NCBI GenBank assembly: GCA_026992595.1
Contig: JALWZW010000050.1
Location: 1 to 41,227 of the forward strand
Direction of reading: 5' to 3'
Length of the DNA: 41,227 bases
Origin: Candidatus Micrarchaeota archaeon
GTDB lineage: Archaea; Micrarchaeota; Micrarchaeia; Anstonellales; Bilamarchaeaceae
Position 1 is the first letter of the stretch, and each line of letters begins with the position of its first letter. The notes under the pieces were generated by a model. That model saw nothing but the letters and a program-made list of their open reading frames with translations. It made no database searches and was not told the DNA's origin. Both the position numbers and the translations under genes were made by a program. Below are positions 2,107 to 27,343 of this stretch, one piece after another.

Positions 2107-2167
2107 GAGGATTTATAAGAGGAAGAGGATTATAAGTTTTTGGGAAGGGCGCGCCTGTTAGTCAAAG

Positions 2168-2180
2168 TTAAAAATAAAAA
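2168..2180 (+). promoter_or_regulatory. TATA-like box upstream of the six-paralog operon
   Basis: TTAAAAATAAAAA lies about 25-30 nt upstream of the ATG at 2203, which would give a leaderless or short-leader transcript. Supported by sequence and spacing only. Confidence 0.25.
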
Positions 2181-2202
2181 CCTTAAAGTGCTTTATCTTC
2201 TG

Positions 2203-3375
2203 ATGGCTTTGGACCTAATGCCCGCCGTGCCTATGCTTGCGGTAGCAGTTTCTATTTTTCTCGCCCTCGCTTATTTACTCTCCCGCGCTCTTCAGAACGA
2301 GCAGTTAGCGCTTTGGGTGAAGATTGAGTTGGCTGAATTGATTGTTTCTGCAGTGCTCATCGCCATTATAACGGGCATGTTTGCGAGCGCACCCCAAATT
2401 TTAAGAGATTATACCGGGGAGGCGGGTGATTTTAGAGAAATAACGCTTGCTGTTGTAGATGGTTGGATTGATGGTTTTTATGCTTCTTATAAAGGGCTGG
2501 TAAAACTCTCTAACTTCATAGGTCAAATGTCCTCGCTAACCTTCGGAGTTTCCATACCTGTTTATGTTTTTACTTTTGGTTTTGGCGGCTCCACTTATGG
2601 GGGAGTGAGCATACTTTTAGGGATGCTTAGCCGCCTTTCCACTTCTTTAACCACCCTTGTTTTTTTGTATGAAGGGTTGAGAGCGCTACTTGAATTTATC
2701 TTTATCACCGTTCCCCCTATTCTCCTCCCCCTCTCTTTCATGGCGCGCCTCATCCCCTTTTTAAGAAAAACAGGGAGCGCTCTTATTGCCTTATCTATAA
2801 CTGCCTATTTGCTTTTACCCTTTGCAATAATCTTCACCAACGCCCTTAATGAAGCGTTGGGAGAGGAAAAGCCAGAGGCAGTGGAAAATGTCTCAAGCCC
2901 CTTCTACTCCCTTTCTGCGGCAAGCGTGATGAAGGGGGTGGTGTGTAGTGAAGTAGGGCGCGTCCCTATAGATACAATAAGAGGACTAAGAAACATGGGG
3001 GAGCAATTATTTGGTTTTATTTCTTGCATTTGGGCGATCCCTTTTGGCTGGTTTCCCGGCTGCTATGCTACTGTGACTCTTAGTATTTATCCCTTCCTCA
3101 ACATAGCTTTTGACCTATTCATGTCTGCCCTCTTTTTGGCGTTTGTTATGGAATATGTTTTTGAATCTGCGGCTGCGGCGGCTGGGGGAGGCGGCTCAGC
3201 ACCCACAGTGATCTTTGAAAGCGCGCAATATTATGCAACAGAAACCACAAAACTGATTGTTTTAGGGAATGTAAATCTTGTTCTAATAGCGCTTATTGTG
3301 CTGGTAGGCGCTCGCTCTATCTCTACAGCGCTTGGCGGTGATTGGTATATGGCAGGAATTCAGAGGTTGATATGA
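2203..3375 (+). CDS. Polytopic membrane protein, paralog 1 of 6 (function unknown)
   Basis: The ORF track gives 2140-3375 from a TTG. The in-frame ATG at 2203 (MALDLMPAVPML...) matches the N-termini of paralogs 5 and 6. Family motifs present: WVKIELAELIVSAVLIA, MARLIPFLRKTGSALIALSITAYLLLPF, C-terminal tail ALGGDWYMAGIQRLI. Multiple TM helices. Confidence 0.8.
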   Translation: MALDLMPAVPMLAVAVSIFLALAYLLSRALQNEQLALWVKIELAELIVSAVLIAIITGMFASAPQILRDYTGEAGDFREITLAVVDGWIDGFYASYKGLVKLSNFIGQMSSLTFGVSIPVYVFTFGFGGSTYGGVSILLGMLSRLSTSLTTLVFLYEGLRALLEFIFITVPPILLPLSFMARLIPFLRKTGSALIALSITAYLLLPFAIIFTNALNEALGEEKPEAVENVSSPFYSLSAASVMKGVVCSEVGRVPIDTIRGLRNMGEQLFGFISCIWAIPFGWFPGCYATVTLSIYPFLNIAFDLFMSALFLAFVMEYVFESAAAAAGGGGSAPTVIFESAQYYATETTKLIVLGNVNLVLIALIVLVGARSISTALGGDWYMAGIQRLI

Positions 3376-4379
3376 TGAAAAAGGCACTTCTCTTTTTGTT
3401 TTTCATTTCTCTTTCTTATGCGCTTCAATGCGTTGATTTGGGGGAACTTTCCGATTTTATGATTGCAGAGGCCGGCGTCTATTTAGCCCCTCTTATAATG
3501 CTCCTTATAGTGGTAATAGCGCTTTTATATGCAGGAGGCACTGTGCTCAACAGGCCTGACCTTATAATAATTGCAAAAGATGAACTTTACCACTTATTTA
3601 TTTCTGTAATAATTCTTATCTCGTTTGGAGGTGTTGCGGTTTTCTCTTGTTTAGCGCTTGATTTCTTCTATCAAAACCTATTTTCCACCCTTTTTGAAAG
3701 CAGAGATTCTTATTGCTATACCCTCTCCTCTTCAGTGTACGATACCGCTTTTTGCTATGCTGATATGTTGGAGCGTGATGCACTCAAACTTGCAGAAGAA
3801 TATACGCGCTTATATATATCAAAGTTAAGAGAATCTGCTTTTGCCGTGACTATGGGGCTGCTCATCACCGATACTTACACTGTGGCTTCCTCTGCCTACA
3901 ATCGCGTTATTGCAAACCAATATAACTTCCTCCTTAACACTTTTATTATCCCTATTCTTACCAGCATCCGCGTTCAAAAGCTTGCATTGGGCTTTATTCA
4001 AAATGAACTTATAAAATATGCGCTTCCCGCAGCCATCATTGCGCGCTTTATCCCATTCTTGCGCCAATCAGGCAATATGGGGTTGGTGATGGTTCTTTCC
4101 ATTTATGTAATAGTTCCCTTCTTCTATGTGCTTGGTTTATCTACTTTTGAATATATTCTCACCCCTCAAGAGTGCGCAGAAAATGCGTTGCTTCAGCAAG
4201 CGCTTTATGACCCGCCTTTTGATAACTCTGAGATAGCAAACAGTTGCAACCCTGATCAACTAAGTTTTTTAGCAATAGCACGGCTGCTACCGCAAGCGGT
4301 ATTTTTGCCAAACCTAACGCTTACGGTAAGTATTTTATTCATATTAGGCGTTAATAGGGCTTTGAGAGGGATAGGATGA
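3372..4379 (+). CDS. Polytopic membrane protein, paralog 2 of 6 (function unknown)
   Basis: The ATG at 3372 overlaps the stop of paralog 1 (ATGA), with GAGGT upstream. Signal-peptide-like MMKKALLFLFFISLSYA. Motifs IAKDELYHLFISVIILI and IARFIPFLRQSGNMGLVMVLSIYVIVPF. It ends at ...NRALRGIG and lacks the extended tail. Confidence 0.8.
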   Translation: MMKKALLFLFFISLSYALQCVDLGELSDFMIAEAGVYLAPLIMLLIVVIALLYAGGTVLNRPDLIIIAKDELYHLFISVIILISFGGVAVFSCLALDFFYQNLFSTLFESRDSYCYTLSSSVYDTAFCYADMLERDALKLAEEYTRLYISKLRESAFAVTMGLLITDTYTVASSAYNRVIANQYNFLLNTFIIPILTSIRVQKLALGFIQNELIKYALPAAIIARFIPFLRQSGNMGLVMVLSIYVIVPFFYVLGLSTFEYILTPQECAENALLQQALYDPPFDNSEIANSCNPDQLSFLAIARLLPQAVFLPNLTLTVSILFILGVNRALRGIG

Positions 4380-6457
4380 AGCGCTTGTTGCTTTTATTTT
4401 TATTGTTTGTTTCTTTTGCCTCCTCTCCTGCTCAAACCCAGTTTGAGGAGGCCACTTCATCCTTTGCTTTAGAATTGGTGCGCGATTGGAAAGCAATTTC
4501 CATCGCCGTCCTTCTCCTCTCCACTGTTATTGTAGCGCTTGCTTACGGTTTCGGTATCGCTTTTGAACTTCCTCAAGTAAAAGCGTGGGCTAATTTGGAG
4601 TTAAGGCAGATTATCGCAAACGCGCTCATCATCGCTTTTCTCATTGCTTCCATTGCTTTTATTGACAATTTGGCGCGCGCGCTTGTGGAGGAAAGCGGAA
4701 TTGCAGTTCCTGAATGCGCTGCAGGCCGCGCTGACTGCTTGCAAGGGGTTGCAAAAACATACATTCAGCAATACTACCAAATGGCTGAAAACGAGTTAAA
4801 GGCGGTTTATTTAGAAAATGTGGCTGATTCGCGTCTTGCTTCTTTAAGAACCTCTGCTTCCTGCTACAGCATCATTGTTCCTGTCCCCTGTTTCCAATTT
4901 GCTATCAACGCTCTCCCATTTGCTATACTTTATTTAGATGTTGATTATAACATGGTGGTGTTTGAGCATTTGCTCAACATTGCCGCTTCCCTTAAGTCAC
5001 AAGAATTTTTTGTAACCGTTATTGGCTACAATTGGGGCCCCATTCTCTTGGCGCTGGGAGTGGTGGCGCGCTCCTTTTATTTAACAAGAAGGTTGGGCGG
5101 CCTTTTAATCGCTGCCTCCATTGGCATCCTCTTTTTCCTCCCCTTTATGTATCTCTTCAATTGGCTTACTTTGGACACCGTTCTAACCTCTTCTTTAGAA
5201 GGGCGCGGCGCTTCTGCAACCTGCCCTTCAGAGTGTATGAAACGCTACCCTGTTGCTTTCAGCGGCTCTCAATCATTTACAGATGAGGACCTGGCAGGGT
5301 TGGGCTTTTCAGAAAATGAGATTAACGCGCTTTCTAATGGAAGCGCCTCTTCGCTCAGCAAAGAGGGCCGCACCTATTATTCCTGCTTTGTGGATGAAAA
5401 CGGCGCGAAATCTGAGGAACAGTGCCCGCGCACCTGCAGAGAGATTCCTTACCCTCAAACCACAGTGTGTGCTGATGAAGATGTGCAAAAGGCATGTGGG
5501 GAGTTGATAAAGGAGTGTAAGGTTGAAAGAGTGGTGGAGGGAGAGGATAGGGATGCGCTTCTGAGCGGCGCTGCGGCTGCTCAATGCCCTGATGCCTGCA
5601 AAATCACCCCCCCGCTTAAGGATGATTGCGGCGCCACTGATTGCAGAACGGTACCTTTTGCGTGCCGCCTTGCCTATAAGCAATATGTGCTTGATGAGGA
5701 TGGGGTGGGCTTCATACCTACTTATTCTTTCCCTGTTAGGTTAGATGATGAAGGAGAGAATATTTGCAGGGATGCGGAAAAGTGCTTTGAGGGGTTGGAA
5801 GATGGCACTTATTTAAGCGCTTATTCTTCCTGCGGCTATATTGTGCCTAAAGAGCAGTCCTGCAGCGAACTTTGTGCTGACTGCCCCCCTCCCTGCCGCA
5901 TTGTTTATATTCCTGCCAGCGAGTCAGACCCTTGGTATATAATGTGCAGGGATTATAGCGTAGAGTGCGTTTCCTGCCCTGTTACTTGCAAAGCAGATGT
6001 CACTTATGATAATTTGAGAAAACTTAAATCTTGCGGCTCTTGCCCTGATTATAAGCGTGTGGTGGGGTTTGGACTTCCTGAAGATTATTTTGAGGGCGCT
6101 TGCTCTTTAGACCAGTGCCCTGCTGATTTAGAGCACAGGGTGCTTATCCCCTCTTCCTCATGCGAAGGGTGTATGTTTAGCGATGAACGCGCCTACTTCA
6201 ACCCGCCCATCACTCCCAATTGCGCTGAGGTGTGCTCTCCTGAGCAGACCACTTATGCCAAATCGCCTGGCCGCTACTCTCAATTGGGCGGAGAGGGGAT
6301 GGCAGGGCCTGAGGAGGTTAAAAACATTTCAAAACTTATGCTTCCCGGCTATCTCTTACCGCTTTTCAATTTAATCGCTACCCTTGTATTTGTAAAAGGG
6401 CTTTCAGAGTTGTTAGGCGGGGATATTGAGATTCCGGGTATTAGGAGGTTGGTGTGA
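4376..6457 (+). CDS. Polytopic membrane protein, paralog 3 of 6, with a large Cys-rich ectodomain insertion
   Basis: ATGA overlap with paralog 2. Signal-like MKRLLLLFLLFVSFASS. Motifs WANLELRQIIANALIIAF and VARSFYLTRRLGGLLIAASIGILFFLPF. A roughly 340-aa insert holds about 32 Cys by hand count, including CPSEC, CPRTC, CPDAC, CPPPC and CPVTC. Final TM plus tail LLGGDIEIPGIRRLV. Confidence 0.85.
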   Translation: MKRLLLLFLLFVSFASSPAQTQFEEATSSFALELVRDWKAISIAVLLLSTVIVALAYGFGIAFELPQVKAWANLELRQIIANALIIAFLIASIAFIDNLARALVEESGIAVPECAAGRADCLQGVAKTYIQQYYQMAENELKAVYLENVADSRLASLRTSASCYSIIVPVPCFQFAINALPFAILYLDVDYNMVVFEHLLNIAASLKSQEFFVTVIGYNWGPILLALGVVARSFYLTRRLGGLLIAASIGILFFLPFMYLFNWLTLDTVLTSSLEGRGASATCPSECMKRYPVAFSGSQSFTDEDLAGLGFSENEINALSNGSASSLSKEGRTYYSCFVDENGAKSEEQCPRTCREIPYPQTTVCADEDVQKACGELIKECKVERVVEGEDRDALLSGAAAAQCPDACKITPPLKDDCGATDCRTVPFACRLAYKQYVLDEDGVGFIPTYSFPVRLDDEGENICRDAEKCFEGLEDGTYLSAYSSCGYIVPKEQSCSELCADCPPPCRIVYIPASESDPWYIMCRDYSVECVSCPVTCKADVTYDNLRKLKSCGSCPDYKRVVGFGLPEDYFEGACSLDQCPADLEHRVLIPSSSCEGCMFSDERAYFNPPITPNCAEVCSPEQTTYAKSPGRYSQLGGEGMAGPEEVKNISKLMLPGYLLPLFNLIATLVFVKGLSELLGGDIEIPGIRRLV

Positions 6458-7443
6458 TGAGAGCGCTTATCTTTTTATTTGTGATTTCCGCTGTTTTTGC
6501 GGCTTGGCAGTCCTTTGCGCTATTAGCGCTCACCACCTCTGTGGTTTTGTTAGCGCTTATATATGGCATTGCCATCGCCTTTTCTGTAAATGAATTGAAG
6601 TTGGTGGCTAAAGAGGAACTTTATCAAATTATCGCCACTGCCCTTATCATCGCTTTGTTGATGGGAAGCGACGGGCTGCTTAATGCAATCTCCACCAACG
6701 CAGACCTCTTGGTGGAAGGCACTACCACTGTGCAGGGAAGCGCTTTAGCCATTCTTTCTAACTACGCAGAACGCTTAGAAAATGCGTTAGAGCGAATAAA
6801 AGAGTTGGACCTTGAGGCAGGTATTGCGGGCTCTACCACTCGCAGTTGCTATGGTGCTTCCTCCACCGCTTACCTTACTTTTAGAGATTGCGGCGGCTTT
6901 TCTATGTACAACCCTGCTTTTTCTGTTGCTGGGGGTGTGGTAGGTGCTGCTTTAGGAGTCATATACTCCATCAAAAATTTAATTCGCTTAGGGGTTGGCT
7001 TTGGCTTCACTATCCTCTTGCCGGTGGGCATCATTTTAAGGACTTTTAAGTTTACGCGAGGTGCCGGAGGGTTGGTTATTGCTTTTGGTATAGCCCTTTA
7101 TTTAATTATTCCTTTGGCAGTTTTATTCGGCGACATGTTGGTTAAAGAGTTTGAGGAAAACTCTTCCACTTATTCTACAGAACCTTCTTCTGTAAGTGTG
7201 GAATTTGATTGCGGGGGCTTTGACCTGAAAGATCTCTATAGAACCCCTACCATGGCTGCTAACAGGGCTGCTTCACAGGTGGATGGGTTAAGACAACTTT
7301 TAAGAGCTTATACTAAAGATGTTTTAATGAGGGGGATTTTAGTGCCTGCTATCGCCCTGCTCTCTTTTGCCAGTTCTCTAAGTGCTTTGGCGGCTTTAGG
7401 AGGGGCAGAGATTAATGTCTCTGCATTGGCGAGGTTTATATGA
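6454..7443 (+). CDS. Polytopic membrane protein, paralog 4 of 6 (function unknown)
   Basis: GTG at 6454 or ATG at 6457 overlaps the paralog 3 stop, with AGGAGG at 6443-6448. Signal-like MMRALIFLFVISAVFA. Motifs VAKEELYQIIATALIIAL and ILRTFKFTRGAGGLVIAFGIALYLIIPL. Tail ALGGAEINVSALARFI. Confidence 0.8.
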   Translation: MMRALIFLFVISAVFAAWQSFALLALTTSVVLLALIYGIAIAFSVNELKLVAKEELYQIIATALIIALLMGSDGLLNAISTNADLLVEGTTTVQGSALAILSNYAERLENALERIKELDLEAGIAGSTTRSCYGASSTAYLTFRDCGGFSMYNPAFSVAGGVVGAALGVIYSIKNLIRLGVGFGFTILLPVGIILRTFKFTRGAGGLVIAFGIALYLIIPLAVLFGDMLVKEFEENSSTYSTEPSSVSVEFDCGGFDLKDLYRTPTMAANRAASQVDGLRQLLRAYTKDVLMRGILVPAIALLSFASSLSALAALGGAEINVSALARFI

Positions 7444-8504
7444 TGCTGTGCGAACAGTTTAATGATTTCTTGCTCACCTCTCTCCTGCCTTTAATCGCCA
7501 CCGCCTCTATGGCCACCGGCATTATAATTGCTTTAGTGCTGTTATTGGGAAGGGCGATAGGCAATTCTCGTTTAAGCGTTTGGGCTAAAGATGAGGTGGT
7601 GCAACTCTTCTTCTCCCTTGCCTTTATCTCCTTTGTCCCTCTTTTGGTTAATTTAAGTTGCACCCTAAACGCCAACGATTTCAGAAACATTTTGCTCGAA
7701 GAAACCTCTTCAGAGGTGGTAAATCTCTATGATGCGGCTGAACTTTATGTGCTTTCTGCAGCGCGCTATTCGCATGAGGCGTTGGCAGCGGTGAGGTATC
7801 ATTTAGAGGTGTATGCGGTGCTTTCTGCTTCAAGCGGCTTTGAGTGTGCTTTCTCCTTTTTAGGGTGCTTGTTTGGGTATACTGGAGATAGTTTCTCTCT
7901 TTTTGGAGGATACGGAGCCCTTCAATCCGCCCTCTCTCTTTTCTTTAATTTAACTGTTATCTCTCTCATGACTGCCCTTCTTCATTATTTCATCCTTTCT
8001 CTCACCTCTAAAGCATTCTTGTTCTTCTTACTTCCTTTAGGCCTCTTTTTCCGCTCTCTGCCTTACATGAGGATACTTGGCTCTGTTCTCTTTGCCCTCG
8101 CCCTTTCCTTTATTTTCATTTATCCCCTTCTCCTTTCCATATTTTGGATAGGTAGCGATTTTGTTCTCCTTGTGCCTTCAGAGATCGGCGAGGGCGATGC
8201 TTATTTAAGAGCAGAAGAGGATATGGTGGGCCGTGCAGGGGCTGCAGCCGCTTCTTCGGTGGCTGCGTTGGCCAGTTTGGTGCCAGGAGCAGGCACCGAG
8301 TTAGCACAGGCCGCAATAAAGGCGTTTTATTTTGATGATGTGGATGAGAGGCCTTATGCAGTGATGGATTTTGCGGTAAGGGCGCTTTTTGCCGCTGTTA
8401 TCCTACCCACCTTGGCTTTAATAGGCGCGCTTGCTTCCACCGTTTACATTGCAAAATTCTTTGGCCAGCAGGTAGATTTAAGTAGGTTAATGCAGTTGAT
8501 GTGA
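7440..8504 (+). CDS. Polytopic membrane protein, paralog 5 of 6 (function unknown)
   Basis: ATGA overlap with paralog 4. Motifs WAKDEVVQLFFSLAFISF and FFRSLPYMRILGSVLFALALSFIFIYPL. Divergent tail FFGQQVDLSRLMQLM. Confidence 0.8.
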   Translation: MMLCEQFNDFLLTSLLPLIATASMATGIIIALVLLLGRAIGNSRLSVWAKDEVVQLFFSLAFISFVPLLVNLSCTLNANDFRNILLEETSSEVVNLYDAAELYVLSAARYSHEALAAVRYHLEVYAVLSASSGFECAFSFLGCLFGYTGDSFSLFGGYGALQSALSLFFNLTVISLMTALLHYFILSLTSKAFLFFLLPLGLFFRSLPYMRILGSVLFALALSFIFIYPLLLSIFWIGSDFVLLVPSEIGEGDAYLRAEEDMVGRAGAAAASSVAALASLVPGAGTELAQAAIKAFYFDDVDERPYAVMDFAVRALFAAVILPTLALIGALASTVYIAKFFGQQVDLSRLMQLM

Positions 8505-8508
8505 TAGG

Positions 8509-9642
8509 ATGGCGCTTCCAGATATGTTGGCTTCTTGGGAGGTGGGTTATGTTCCTATTATTGCAGTGGTTTCTCTTACCGCCACTGCCATTTATGCAAC
8601 GCTGCTAGGGTTTGCCAAAGCTTTTAACATGCCTAATTTAGAGCGTTTTGCTAAATCTGAGTTAGCGCAGGTTATTGCTACGGTGTTGATGACTGCCTTT
8701 TTGCTCTTTTTTGTGGGCTCTGCGCTTGAAGTGGCTTCTTCTCTTATAGGTGGAAATATTTACTGCGCCGGCGAATTATATACCTTTGGCGGCTATGAGT
8801 TTGACCCTTCTGAAGGTATTGTTTATGAAAACCAACCTTTGAACAAAGCGTTTGAACTTATTAAGTGCAAATTGAGGACAAGGGGTAAAGAAGTGGGCGA
8901 ATTTATTGACTCTATGTTCCCTCAACTAACGCAAACCAGCCCTCTTCCTTCTCTATCGGGCAGGGCGGCAGAACTTTACATGATCTACTTTCTCTACTAC
9001 TTCAGCGCGAGCGTTTTAGGGATTCCTATCTATAATGGGCAGTTTGGTTTAGGTGGTGGATGGGCCGGAGCGGCAGGGGGCGAACTTTTAAGCGTTTATG
9101 GTTTGGTGGAACAGTCCCGCCTTCTCCTCATGTTTGCGGTAAATGTTTTGGTTGCGATTAACAGCCAATATGCTCTTGTGCTCTATATTCAAAAAACCTT
9201 CCTTGCCATTTTCCTGCCTTTGGGTATTCTTTTAAGGTCTTTCTATTTCACAAGAAGTATAGGTGCCCTGTTTATCTCTCTCGCTCTTTCTCTCTATTTT
9301 GTTTATCCTGTTGTTTATATTCTTTTGGACCCTGGATTTGCGCCCTCTTCAACAAGCGAAGAAGAACCCGCCCCTTCTTCTGTTTCCTCTTTAGGTTGTG
9401 TTAATACCATGAACAGTTTTGCTACTGTTATGTCCTCCTTTGCTTCTGTTCAGCAGCAAACTGCCGCGGTAGGAGAAAGTGAAGGGCAAGCGAGCATTAG
9501 CGATTATTCGCGCTTCTATTTAGAACTTTTGATACACCCTCTTGTTTCTCTCTCTATTTCGCTGTTGGTAGCGCGTTATGTGATGCATCTTTTAGGTGGC
9601 GATCCTTATGCGTTTGCCCGCTTTGCGGCAAAAGTAATATAA
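8509..9642 (+). CDS. Polytopic membrane protein, paralog 6 of 6 (function unknown)
   Basis: Starts 4 nt after the paralog 5 stop. Motifs FAKSELAQVIATVLMTAF and LLRSFYFTRSIGALFISLALSLYFVYPV. Tail LLGGDPYAFARFAAKVI. Confidence 0.8.
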   Translation: MALPDMLASWEVGYVPIIAVVSLTATAIYATLLGFAKAFNMPNLERFAKSELAQVIATVLMTAFLLFFVGSALEVASSLIGGNIYCAGELYTFGGYEFDPSEGIVYENQPLNKAFELIKCKLRTRGKEVGEFIDSMFPQLTQTSPLPSLSGRAAELYMIYFLYYFSASVLGIPIYNGQFGLGGGWAGAAGGELLSVYGLVEQSRLLLMFAVNVLVAINSQYALVLYIQKTFLAIFLPLGILLRSFYFTRSIGALFISLALSLYFVYPVVYILLDPGFAPSSTSEEEPAPSSVSSLGCVNTMNSFATVMSSFASVQQQTAAVGESEGQASISDYSRFYLELLIHPLVSLSISLLVARYVMHLLGGDPYAFARFAAKVI

Positions 9643-23676: not shown

Positions 23677-24375
23677 ATGCTGAGCATTATTATCCCTACT
23701 CTCAACGAAGAAGAATGGATCGGCAAACTTCTCACGCAACTGAAGGAGCAGGTGAGAGAGGGGGATGAAATTATTGTGGTAGATTCTGAGAGCGAGGACC
23801 GCACCGTAGAGATCGCTGAGCGGTTTGGGGCGCGGGTGATAAGGTGTGGGAGGAATGGGAAAGGAGAGGCCTGCACCTTGGGCGCAAAACATGCTAAGAA
23901 CGATATTGTGGTGTTTTTGGATGCTGATTGTATAATTGCAGGGGATTATTTAGAGAGAATTAGAAGTCATTTTAAGAAGGGGGTGGTGGCGGTGGGCGGT
24001 TTAGACCTTTATTTAAGCGAGTCGCGCCCCCGCAAATGGCTTTACGACACTTATTCTAAAGGGGTGTTCTATTTAAGCAAAATCCACAACCGCCTTACCA
24101 AAGAGTGTTGCTTCCCTTCAAACAATGCGGCCTTTAAGCGCGAGGCATTCTTGGCATGCGGCGGCTACCGCTCTGTGGTATGTGAGGAAGCAGATTTAAT
24201 GAGGAGGTTTAAAAGCCACAATGTTATCTATGACCCGCGCTTAGTTGTTCTGCTCTCTGACAGGCGCTTTAAGCAGCACGGCTTTCTAAACACCCTTGCG
24301 TTATGGGCAAAAGGCCATCTCAAACTTATTTTAGAGGACGGCCTTAAGTCCCATGATTATAAAAAGGGGTATTAA
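23677..24375 (+). CDS. Glycosyltransferase family 2
   Basis: LSIIIPTLNEE, VVDSESEDRT and FLDADC (DxD) motifs. Confidence 0.85.
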   Translation: MLSIIIPTLNEEEWIGKLLTQLKEQVREGDEIIVVDSESEDRTVEIAERFGARVIRCGRNGKGEACTLGAKHAKNDIVVFLDADCIIAGDYLERIRSHFKKGVVAVGGLDLYLSESRPRKWLYDTYSKGVFYLSKIHNRLTKECCFPSNNAAFKREAFLACGGYRSVVCEEADLMRRFKSHNVIYDPRLVVLLSDRRFKQHGFLNTLALWAKGHLKLILEDGLKSHDYKKGY

Positions 24376-24385
24376 AAGAGTTAGT

Positions 24386-24394
24386 TTTATAAAT
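24386..24394 (+). promoter_or_regulatory. TATA-like box upstream of the large surface-protein gene
   Basis: TTTATAAAT lies about 26 nt upstream of the ATG at 24416. Confidence 0.25.
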
Positions 24395-24415
24395 CTTCTA
24401 TTTTTTAAACTTGTG

Positions 24416-27343
24416 ATGAGGCCCTATCCTTTAGTTGCGCTTTTATTTCTTTCTCTCTCTTACGCTGCAATTATAAACAGTTGCCAGTCCATCACTGCGT
24501 CTGGATATTATGAATTGGGCAACTCTTTGACAGATGGCGGCACCCCTTTTGGCTCTTTTGATGTTTGTATAAGAATAGCAAGCGATGATGTTACTCTTGA
24601 CTGCAAAGGATATAACATCACCGATAATGCGCCTTCTATAAGCTATGCTGCGGTTGCTATGGATAGCGTAAAAAATATCAACATCCAAAATTGCGTTTTT
24701 GAGCGCTATAACCATACCATCCATATTCAGAACTCTAAGAACATTGTTATACGCAATTCTCTCTTCTACCCTCCTGCGCCCGCTTCGCCTTCTGTGCATT
24801 CACGCTCTATCTATGTGGACGCTTCCTCTTTGGGCGACAATATTTCGGTCTCTAATGTAACATTTAAAGGAAATGAAAGCGCAACCGCTGCCTTTGCTTT
24901 TTATGGGAACGGCGCCAATGTTACCATCACCAACTCTACATTCTATAAATACTTTTTTGCGTTGGAGGTGGTGGGAGGCGTTGAGAATTTGACCATAAGC
25001 CGTAACAGTTTTAATCAAACTTTCCCTGTTCCTACTGTGGTGGAATATCTGCCCATTACAAACTTCAACACCACACGCTTTGTAAGGAACCGCATTTTTA
25101 GTTGCAAAGTTCGTTGTTTGCGGCCTCAAGGGGGAAGGTGGTTCATTGAGCATAATTTGTTTGAACTTGACCCTGTAGGCGCACACCCTATTCTTGCGAT
25201 AAACAACAATCTACTTCTCGTTTACAATAATACTTTTATAATCAAAAACTACACCGCTCTCTCTCCTTTTGCCTTAGCGATAGGTTTGCAGGATGTTAAT
25301 TATACTAATATAACGAAGGCATATATAGAAGGAAATGGGTATGCTGTAGGTGGTGTGGGCAGCGGGCCTGGCAGCTCTATCAACACCACCTATATTGAGC
25401 ATGTAGTTATGAATAATATCACAGGGAGAGGGATTGGGTTGGCTGATGTGAAAAAATTGGTGGTAAATGATGTAAATATAAGCTATGTTACGCCTTTAGG
25501 GCCTTTTGGCATTGGCCTTCTTTTTGCTAATGTGGGCGGGGATGTTGCAAATGTCCGCATTAAGGGCGCTCCTCAGGGTATGGTTTTTGACAAAAACAAC
25601 AACATTACTTTTAATAACATAATTATGGAGAATGGCTCTTTAGGGGTGTGGGTGTTTGAGTTTGCAAGCTCGCCTTCTAATCTTACTTTCAACAACCTCA
25701 CTGCAGCGCATTTTGACACTGCCATGAAGTTGGCTTCTTTCTATAACCTCACAATAAGAAATGGCCACTTTTATAACACTTCCACCGGCATCTGGGTTGC
25801 CTCTTATCCGTTTTTACCTGCCCTTAACCGCAACTTGGTATTTAATATTGCATTTGATAGACCTGCTGACGGCTTCACTGATTACACTAATCTAAGCTTA
25901 GTTGATGTGGTGTCTGGAAGTGAATCCTACAACATTTCCTGGTCCCCTCCTGTGCCTCCACCCCCCAACCTTACATCCTTTAATAACAAGTACATAGAAA
26001 TAATTAATGCCACTCCCACAAGCATAGACACTGTGGAGTGGCATTGGTTAGACAGCGAATTGGGAAGCTTTGATGAAACAGCATTTGAGTTGTGGAGTTA
26101 TAACGGGACAAATTGGACTATGAGGAGCAACACTCCAGACACAGTGCTTAACAAATTCACTTTAGCACCTCTTAACCAATTTAGCATCTTTGCCATTCTT
26201 GCCCCTCCGCCCACGCCCAGCGACGGAGGAGGCGGAGGAGGAGGTTTGGACAATCTTAATGTAGAACTATACACCGAGTGTAATTACAGCTATGTGAATG
26301 TAACATCAGGCGGAAATGCAGTAGATGGGGCATCTGTGCTTATAACAGACCTTTACGGCCTGCCTGTTGCTTCAGGGCAGACAGATAGCAACGGCATTCT
26401 GGGCTTTGCATCCTCCTGTGGTCAGGACCTTTGGATTAGAGTGAGCAAGAGCGGCTATTATCCTGAAAGCATAATAAGAAGCACCATTGACTGCTCTCAA
26501 TGTGTAAGCCCCTGCCCGCCGGGCCAACAGCTTATAAATGGCAGTTGCCAAAGCCCACCCCCGCCAGATTGCGGCTGCGGCTATTTTGATGCTGATTTGC
26601 AGCAATGCGTAGCATTCCAATGCTGCTCTGATGCTGATTGCCCTCAGGGCTATGGCTGTGTGGATAACAGCTGCCAACCCCAGGGCTGTTTAAGCAATGA
26701 GGATTGCAGAGAGGAGGAGTACTGCGATATCCCGCCCAATGCTTTGGTGGGCAGTTGCAAGCAGGTGGAGGGGGTGTGCGGCTATCCCGCTAACCACACT
26801 TGGATTATGTATGAGTGTGGAGAGGAAGAGGGCTGCCCCTCGTGCAGCAGAGGGGTTTGTGAGAACAGGCAATGCATTATTTACAGCATAGAATGCCCTG
26901 AGCAGGTGCAGGAGGGAGAGGAGATTGTGTGCGAGGTGAGGCGGGATGGCAGTTTATGCAGCAACTGTGAGGTGCTGGTTAAAGACCCGGAGCAGGTGAG
27001 GAGAAGCTTTGCTACAGACAGCCAGGGGCTGCTTAGGATTAAGGCAGAAAAGATAGGGGCTTATCTCTTTGAGGTGGGCGGCTCTACTGCAACCACAGAG
27101 GTTTATAGAATAATAAAGGAGAAAGAGGAGGGGGTGCCTTGGCTGCAAATATGCTTAGCGGTGTTGGCGCTGCTGCTGCTTGCGCTCTGGTGCTGGAGGA
27201 GGAAGAAGGCAGAGGAAGAGAGGATAAAGAAGCTTTATAAAGAAGGGAAGATTAGCAAGAGGGCGATGGAGAGGATGCTGGAGGAGTTGAAGAAAAAGCA
27301 CTGCTGGGAGAAGTTTGAGGAGGAGGAAGAAAAATTAAAATAA
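24416..27343 (+). CDS. Large membrane-anchored surface protein: signal peptide, right-handed beta-helix repeats, Gly linker, CarboxypepD_reg-like domain, Cys-rich module, C-terminal TM and charged tail
   Basis: The ORF track starts at 24353. The ATG at 24416 gives signal-like MRPYPLVALLFLSLSYA. PbH1-like repeats (NINIQNCVF..., NIVIRNSLF...). More than 30 N-x-S/T sequons by hand count. A G7 run. VLITDLYGLPVASGQTDSNGILGF...VSKSGYY. A Cys-rich block (CSDADCPQGYGCVDNSCQ...). TM LQICLAVLALLLLALWCW followed by RRKKAEEE.... Confidence 0.8.
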   Translation: MRPYPLVALLFLSLSYAAIINSCQSITASGYYELGNSLTDGGTPFGSFDVCIRIASDDVTLDCKGYNITDNAPSISYAAVAMDSVKNINIQNCVFERYNHTIHIQNSKNIVIRNSLFYPPAPASPSVHSRSIYVDASSLGDNISVSNVTFKGNESATAAFAFYGNGANVTITNSTFYKYFFALEVVGGVENLTISRNSFNQTFPVPTVVEYLPITNFNTTRFVRNRIFSCKVRCLRPQGGRWFIEHNLFELDPVGAHPILAINNNLLLVYNNTFIIKNYTALSPFALAIGLQDVNYTNITKAYIEGNGYAVGGVGSGPGSSINTTYIEHVVMNNITGRGIGLADVKKLVVNDVNISYVTPLGPFGIGLLFANVGGDVANVRIKGAPQGMVFDKNNNITFNNIIMENGSLGVWVFEFASSPSNLTFNNLTAAHFDTAMKLASFYNLTIRNGHFYNTSTGIWVASYPFLPALNRNLVFNIAFDRPADGFTDYTNLSLVDVVSGSESYNISWSPPVPPPPNLTSFNNKYIEIINATPTSIDTVEWHWLDSELGSFDETAFELWSYNGTNWTMRSNTPDTVLNKFTLAPLNQFSIFAILAPPPTPSDGGGGGGGLDNLNVELYTECNYSYVNVTSGGNAVDGASVLITDLYGLPVASGQTDSNGILGFASSCGQDLWIRVSKSGYYPESIIRSTIDCSQCVSPCPPGQQLINGSCQSPPPPDCGCGYFDADLQQCVAFQCCSDADCPQGYGCVDNSCQPQGCLSNEDCREEEYCDIPPNALVGSCKQVEGVCGYPANHTWIMYECGEEEGCPSCSRGVCENRQCIIYSIECPEQVQEGEEIVCEVRRDGSLCSNCEVLVKDPEQVRRSFATDSQGLLRIKAEKIGAYLFEVGGSTATTEVYRIIKEKEEGVPWLQICLAVLALLLLALWCWRRKKAEEERIKKLYKEGKISKRAMERMLEELKKKHCWEKFEEEEEKLK

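Follow-up and report, generated by a model that had tools for sequence, protein, structure and literature searches.

A cysteine-rich, probably disulfide-stapled ectodomain on the third of six paralogous membrane proteins of a Micrarchaeota array

Six paralogous membrane proteins (p1 to p6) are encoded in tandem on a 41,227-nucleotide (nt) stretch of DNA from Candidatus Micrarchaeota archaeon (Anstonellales; Bilamarchaeaceae; GCA_026992595.1, contig JALWZW010000050.1, or contig C50 of the assembly), and the third of them, p3, carries a large cysteine-rich insert. What is this insert, on which side of the membrane does it lie, and what are its cysteines for? The window below is the whole of that stretch; the genome it comes from has 817 kb in 81 contigs and is 94% complete. 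The Micrarchaeota share the tiny genomes of the other DPANN archaea, and most are thought to depend on a host; we know of no mechanism established for their attachment to, or exchange with, other cells. The insert is probably an ectodomain with a novel fold, stapled by about 16 disulfide bonds, and p3 itself would be subunit 3 of a membrane system of six paralogs, undescribed so far, in Micrarchaeota. In the literature on Micrarchaeota, DPANN and Anstonellales, no paper was found that describes the membrane family or the p3 ectodomain.

The gene and its parts are as follows, with nt positions of the window and amino acid (aa) positions of p3; TM stands for transmembrane helix.

4376-6457, plus strand: p3 gene, encoding a 693-aa polytopic membrane protein, number 3 of the six tandem paralogs p1-p6 (2140-9642).
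4376-4432, plus strand: signal peptide MKRLLLLFLLFVSFASSPA, read from the sequence, with a putative cleavage site before the Q that follows it.
4487-4687, plus strand: TM1 (aa 38-62) and TM2 (aa 74-104), with a short cytoplasmic turn between them and with W71, E75 and Q78 conserved.
4688-5005, plus strand: first outer loop (aa 105-210), which AlphaFold2 models as long helices with a beta-hairpin.
5006-5173, plus strand: TM3 (aa 211-231), the basic loop RSFYLTRRLGG (aa 232-243), which is the hallmark of the family, and TM4 (aa 244-266).
5222-6235, plus strand: cysteine-rich ectodomain (aa 283-620), with 32 cysteines and five CPxxC-[RK]-hydrophobic-x-P-P motifs.
6335-6454, plus strand: last TM helix (aa 654-677) and conserved cytoplasmic tail LGGDIEIPGIRRLV, the best-conserved part of p3 (62% identity).

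The first-pass annotation of the window had described a cysteine-rich insert of about 340 aa in p3 with five CPxxC motifs, and both points held. The insert contains 32 cysteines in 338 aa (9.5%), against a mean of 1.41% for the open reading frames (ORFs) of at least 100 aa in the source genome (P = 6e-17 for 32 or more), and the five sister proteins of the array contain 3-6 cysteines each. The motifs CPSEC, CPRTC, CPDAC, CPPPC and CPVTC were located at aa 283, 350, 404, 503 and 534, respectively; 0.21 motifs were expected, and none of 20,000 shuffles of the insert had five. They belong to a recurring unit of about 13 residues, C-P-x-x-C-[RK]-hydrophobic-x-P-P (logo C-P-x-[E]-C-[RK]-[VI]-x-P-P). 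Several CxxC/CxC pairs had also been listed. Four CxxC are present (CADC at aa 500, CVSC at 531, CGSC at 553 and CEGC at 596, followed by P, P, P and M, respectively), which is no excess over chance (2.9 expected by shuffling, P = 0.34), and the insert contains no CxC. The informative motif is CPxxC, not CxxC. The sister paralogs, said to have 60-120 aa at this position, are indeed shorter there, with an actual range of about 50-140 aa, compared with about 380 aa for the full loop between the flanking helices of p3 (aa 267-653). A tandem duplication of domains within the insert was considered and rejected, as segment-versus-segment hhalign aligned only 8-25 columns around the motif; what recurs within the insert is a motif and not a domain.

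The annotation had placed the insert outside the cytoplasm by the positive-inside rule, and the topology derived here agrees with it. The N-terminal pattern of M-[KR], a hydrophobic run and small residues is found in most of the 43 p3 orthologs listed. Across 44 aligned orthologs, the loop at aa 232-243 has a mean of 3.0 K+R and no D+E, and R232, R238, G241 and G242 are invariant. Because this loop is basic and free of acidic residues it is placed in the cytoplasm, and therefore the loop at aa 105-210 and the insert would lie outside and the LGGDIEIPG tail inside. AlphaFold2, run on full-length p3 with the 44-sequence alignment, gave a mean predicted local distance difference test (pLDDT) score of 80.9 and helices at aa 38-62, 66-107, 183-233, 238-275 and 646-679, that is, five membrane helices; aa 1-30 were unstructured (pLDDT about 50), and the hydrophobic stretch at aa 166-185 was modelled as a beta-hairpin and not as a membrane helix. 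Signal peptide, positive-inside rule and helix layout together point to an extracytoplasmic insert. The loop at aa 267-653 is acidic, with an ortholog mean of 57 D+E versus 32 K+R. Four residues, E75, R232, R238 and G241, are invariant family-wide; they and the conserved tail would occupy the cytoplasmic face, and the outer parts differ among the paralogs.

No part of the p3 orthologs is better conserved throughout the phylum than the tail, LGGDIEIPG-x-[SR]-[KR]-hydrophobic-hydrophobic (window 6407-6454), which hardly differs between a protein of 600 aa and one of 1,600 aa. Such constancy suggests a cytoplasmic docking or assembly signal.

Full-length p3 orthologs were found in 41/41 genomes of Anstonellales. 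In the 11 closest, all of the same genus, every one of the 32 insert cysteines is identical, at an insert identity of about 35%. The wider set of 44 orthologs keeps 12 insert cysteines without exception and each of the other 20 in at least 36 members, which disposes of the possibility, raised in the annotation, that the insert is unconserved and of low complexity. Most of the remaining near-invariant positions of the insert are Pro and Gly. Mean identity to the window p3 was highest in the last TM and tail (62%), intermediate in the TM core (41%) and lowest in the insert (34%, or 26% excluding Cys). The comparison of indels between insert and core that the annotation had proposed gave 1.14 indel columns per residue for the insert and 0.15 for the core; for dN/dS the orthologs are too distant, since even the nearest share only about 40% identity and synonymous sites are saturated. 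The insert is a fixed scaffold under a fast-changing surface, and no low-complexity filler.

The way in which cysteines are gained and lost bears on what they do. Their number in the insert is even in 42/44 orthologs (range 22-36), and in 14/16 of the orthologs with a count other than 32 (P = 0.002 if independent). Counts of 34, 30, 26 and 22 occur, so that the steps are of 2 and not of 4, and the extra cysteines come as neighbouring pairs (452/457, 420/422 and 339/343). The first outer loop of p3 has two conserved cysteine pairs of its own, 114/121 and 163/172; Cys163 and Cys172 are jointly absent in 10/44 orthologs, with no discordant case. This pattern of conservation, gain and loss is that of pairs, in line with the disulfide character proposed earlier, and fits disulfides better than Cys4 metal sites.

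The alternative is that the insert cysteines are metal ligands, of a zinc-ribbon-like or iron-sulfur type, in a domain that could be cytoplasmic or outside. CxxC-P-xx-C at aa 500-507 and 531-538, and CGSCP at 553, do resemble metal knuckles, and a confident AlphaFold2 fold cannot separate metal sites from disulfides. Against this stand the signal peptide and the basic loop, which put the domain outside, the steps of two just described and the chance-level number of CxxC. In addition, the insert has a single His and no CxxCH haem-binding motif, contrary to what a multihaem c-type cytochrome would have, and it matched no zinc-ribbon, Fer4 or other iron-sulfur family in Pfam (E ≤ 0.1) or NCBIfam, and no PDB sequence profile at E ≤ 1. 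We consider metal binding very unlikely.

For the formation of disulfides outside the cytoplasm, three membrane-anchored DsbA-like (Thioredoxin_4) proteins were found in the source genome, and the active site is CPFC in two of the three:

Contig C13, 1296-2171: DsbA-like protein.
Contig C64, 20889-21599: DsbA-like protein.
Contig C1, 507-1421: DsbA-like protein.

The copy on contig C1 has a multi-helix N-terminal membrane part with cysteine pairs of its own, which could be a fused re-oxidising module. DsbA-like genes are present in 6/6 genomes of the source genus.

Several observations weigh against a disulfide-stapled ectodomain. VKOR and DsbB were searched for in the source genome and neither was found, a point that speaks for metal binding, as does the patchy distribution of DsbA-like genes. 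DsbA-like genes are present in only 53/151 sampled Micrarchaeota genomes and in 0/71 genomes of two large families that carry the membrane family, so that many array-bearing Micrarchaeota have none detected; oxidative folding by a dedicated pathway is thus no general trait, phylum-wide co-occurrence with DsbA does not hold as support for disulfides, and the DsbA support, being local to the genus, is counted as a weakness. The habitat of many of these organisms is anoxic water. The parity counts come from related sequences and are not independent, and in the largest orthologs, for which domain boundaries are crude, parity is not evident (14/25 even). Only two things, the signal peptide and the positive-inside rule, fix the predicted topology of p3. 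Finally, conservation in the insert falls on structural residues (Cys, Pro, Gly), and neither a binding nor a catalytic site is evident.

The structure prediction that had been called for gave a confident fold. With the insert alone AlphaFold2 reached a pLDDT of 85.3 and a predicted template modelling score (pTM) of 0.80, and the model indicates one compact domain, in which every CPxxC forms part of a one-turn helix that leads into a short strand. No PDB analogue was found: Foldseek with full-length p3 and with the insert alone had no PDB match at E ≤ 0.001 (best E 2.1 and 3.5, respectively; query-normalised TM-score at most 0.12 for the best matches), nor any match at E ≤ 0.001 in BFVD. A PDB sequence-profile search with the membrane family returned nothing relevant. 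Pfam gave no match at E ≤ 0.1 for the six window paralogs and none at E ≤ 0.01 for two paralogs of a second array on contig C23, and NCBIfam gave none for the p3-family paralogs searched.

The annotation had proposed a search for the module as an independent domain of other archaeal surface proteins, and no such domain came up. An exhaustive phmmer search with the insert over 1.84 billion representative proteins returned, at E ≤ 0.001, 40 proteins. Those of full length (about 550-870 aa) match at the same relative position and the others (131-421 aa) are apparent fragments, so that we read all 40 as p3 orthologs. A word-indexed homolog search returned only p3 itself for the insert, and 8 unnamed proteins for the membrane-family profile. 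One p3 ortholog carries the NCBI name 'hypothetical protein'. Across the phylum the p3 ectodomain varies from 270 to 1189 aa, with up to about 100 cysteines and with CPxxC-[RK] motifs rising from 5 to 8-15, on a constant core and tail.

In three related arrays (loci L022, L090 and L091) p1, p4 or p5 has a cysteine-rich outer extension (21-57 Cys). None of these extensions contains CPxxC, and therefore cysteine-rich heads arose more than once on this scaffold.

The array itself is compact. Neighbouring start and stop codons overlap or are 4 nt apart: the p3 ATG shares bases with the p2 stop (ATGA) and the p3 TGA with the p4 start (GTGATG). Upstream of the starts lie GAGG-like motifs. The gene order is p1-p2-p3-p4-p5-p6 in all 19 related loci classified, and in each of them the cysteine-rich subunit is p3 (26-107 Cys, 672-1431 aa). 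The flanking window genes lysK, PAC2 and ribD are not carried along with the array in related loci; Pfam domains in the window include PAC2, an archaeal ATPase domain and class I LysRS, as would suit archaeal DNA. Smaller ORFs of 84-124 aa run over the insert in other frames (5032-5286 and 5253-5507, plus strand; 5309-5683, minus strand), and are most likely spurious because they lie inside a conserved coding region. The source genome has a second array:

Contig C23, 2354-9868, minus strand: another array of six membrane-family genes, flanked by genes for an SRP54/FtsY-type GTPase and AspRS.

Its members have 2-5 cysteines each and none is cysteine-rich. A 13th family member, split by a run of N, lies on contig C31 (146-1293), and together the 13 copies make up about 2% of the 817 kb. 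The membrane-family profile matched in 135/151 sampled Micrarchaeota genomes, usually with at least 13 matches per genome in Anstonellales and 5-10 elsewhere. The six-subunit set is so far found only in Micrarchaeota, and its proteins would assemble into one complex.

The following course of events would account for these data. p3 would enter the membrane by way of a cleavable signal peptide, and threading of TM1-TM4 would keep the basic R-x-F-x-F-T-R-[KR]-x-G-G loop in the cytoplasm. As a consequence the segment of about 380 aa after TM4 would be exported, and the last helix would bring the LGGDIEIPG tail back to the cytoplasm. The exported segment would fold into one compact globule on the invariant scaffold of Cys, Pro and Gly, while the rest of its surface would drift fast and accept indels. 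The resulting rigid, acidic, cross-linked cap would be the part of the p1-p6 complex that faces outward and varies between lineages. It may contact something external, which could be the envelope layer of the organism itself, a partner cell or a host.

Such a contact role has to be weighed against a purely structural one, in which the insert is a spacer or cap that holds the six-subunit complex together or sets the height of that complex within the envelope (surface layer or pseudo-periplasm) and has no external ligand. Conservation is confined to Cys, Pro and Gly and does not extend to any polar patch, and a four-fold range of loop length on a constant core and tail is how a spacer would behave. 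On the other hand, a fast-drifting surface with indels on an invariant scaffold is also typical of contact surfaces under changing selection, and a spacer does not need 32 invariant cysteines. Spacer and contact are not mutually exclusive; the spacer by itself is a tenable reading, if a somewhat doubtful one.

A more specific role is suggested by the family member on contig C31, which belongs to this gene run:

Contig C31, 146-4429, all on the same strand: family member, membrane proteins of 102 aa and 242 aa, a 477-aa ATPase and a 232-aa coiled-coil protein.

The reading frames abut or overlap. The ATPase has DUF87, AAA_10 and TrwB_AAD_bind domains, and its relatives in the PDB are HerA and VirB4. 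Orthologs were found in 41/41 genomes of the order, and in 10/20 loci of the order (only 1.5 kb flank each) the gene immediately upstream of the ATPase ortholog encodes a family member. The Ced system has a comparable makeup, CedA (6-7 TM), two small 2-TM proteins and the VirB4/HerA-like CedB (PMC9905601). The layout on contig C31 parallels CedA/CedA1/CedA2/CedB, which is a lead from gene context on the whole family and no evidence on the p3 array.

The p3 insert might, by extension, be the distal, partner-facing part of a conduit resembling a type IV secretion system (T4SS; Ced/Ted-like), with the membrane family as a VirB6/CedA-type channel and the HerA/VirB4-like ATPase as its driver. The gene run on contig C31 and the recurrent ATPase linkage speak for it; against it, the p1-p6 array in the source genome has no ATPase neighbour, and the best PDB matches of the ATPase are of the HerA type, which is also active in unrelated processes. 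Membership of the membrane family in VirB6/TrbL was unsupported by every search: PF04610 (TrbL) had no match at E ≤ 10 in six frames of the whole source genome, hhalign of the family profile with R388 TrwI (sequence from NC_028464) gave a probability of 0.1%, the PDB profiles gave nothing relevant, and no VirB6 structure was among the Foldseek PDB matches at E ≤ 10. We regard such a conduit as unlikely, and as quite unlikely the further proposal that six subunits peculiar to Micrarchaeota form a T4SS/Ced-like conduit, driven by the ATPase, whose tip towards the host is the p3 ectodomain. If true, the ectodomain would be part of the apparatus by which DPANN episymbionts dock on their hosts and exchange material, and its cysteine-braced, fast-evolving surface would set partner specificity.

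The window encodes a further cysteine-rich protein, which the annotation had compared with the insert. Its block at 26492-26968 was confirmed, with 26 Cys in 159 aa (aa 714-872 of a 996-aa protein at 24353-27343). Kinship with the insert was rejected, since BLAST gave no match at E ≤ 10 and the block is without CPxxC, and the likeness is one of composition only. In most relatives a giant cysteine-rich protein is encoded a few kb downstream of p3. The 996-aa protein was considered as this neighbour and rejected, the true homolog being on another contig:

Contig C74, 3087-6953, minus strand: homolog of the giant cysteine-rich neighbour, 1288 aa, with a lipobox and 41 Cys.

It is thus detached from the array in the source genome, where PAC2 follows p6 instead. 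Nearly all other cysteine-rich ORFs of the source genome start with a signal peptide or lipobox, and therefore cysteine-richness marks exported proteins in this organism.

The p3 ectodomain is the most elaborate outward-facing part of an undescribed membrane family. With 338 aa, 5 motifs and 32 cysteines, the insert of the window is among the smaller versions, and those of other lineages reach about 1,200 aa and about 100 cysteines; because it is small and confidently folded by AlphaFold2 it is the most practical construct for experiments. Its predicted fold, without analogue in the PDB, may represent a new class of disulfide-rich prokaryotic surface module.

Among known systems, the EGF-like, furin-like/growth-factor-receptor, TNFR and Giardia VSP modules likewise lie outside the cell with about 10% Cys, and likewise combine an invariant cysteine scaffold with variable loops and paired gain and loss of cysteines. 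Unlike them, the insert is built on C-P-x-x-C-[RK]-hydrophobic-x-P-P and not on CxxC, repeats a motif of about 13 residues and no whole domain, forms a loop within a polytopic archaeal membrane protein, and matches none of these families by Pfam, Foldseek or PDB profiles. The VirB6/TrbL family (PF04610), CedA/TedA and the 'extended' VirB6 proteins share with the p3 family about five TM helices, a large outer domain and multiplied paralogs; no similarity in sequence, profile or fold was detected, and the likeness is one of context and architecture only. In the mce operons of mycobacteria, six tandem paralogous subunits form one hetero-hexamer. The fold and topology of p1-p6 are unrelated to these, without an MCE domain, and their joint assembly is only inferred; like the mce subunits, they are six paralogs in a fixed order, with overlapping or near-abutting reading frames and with variable outer parts.

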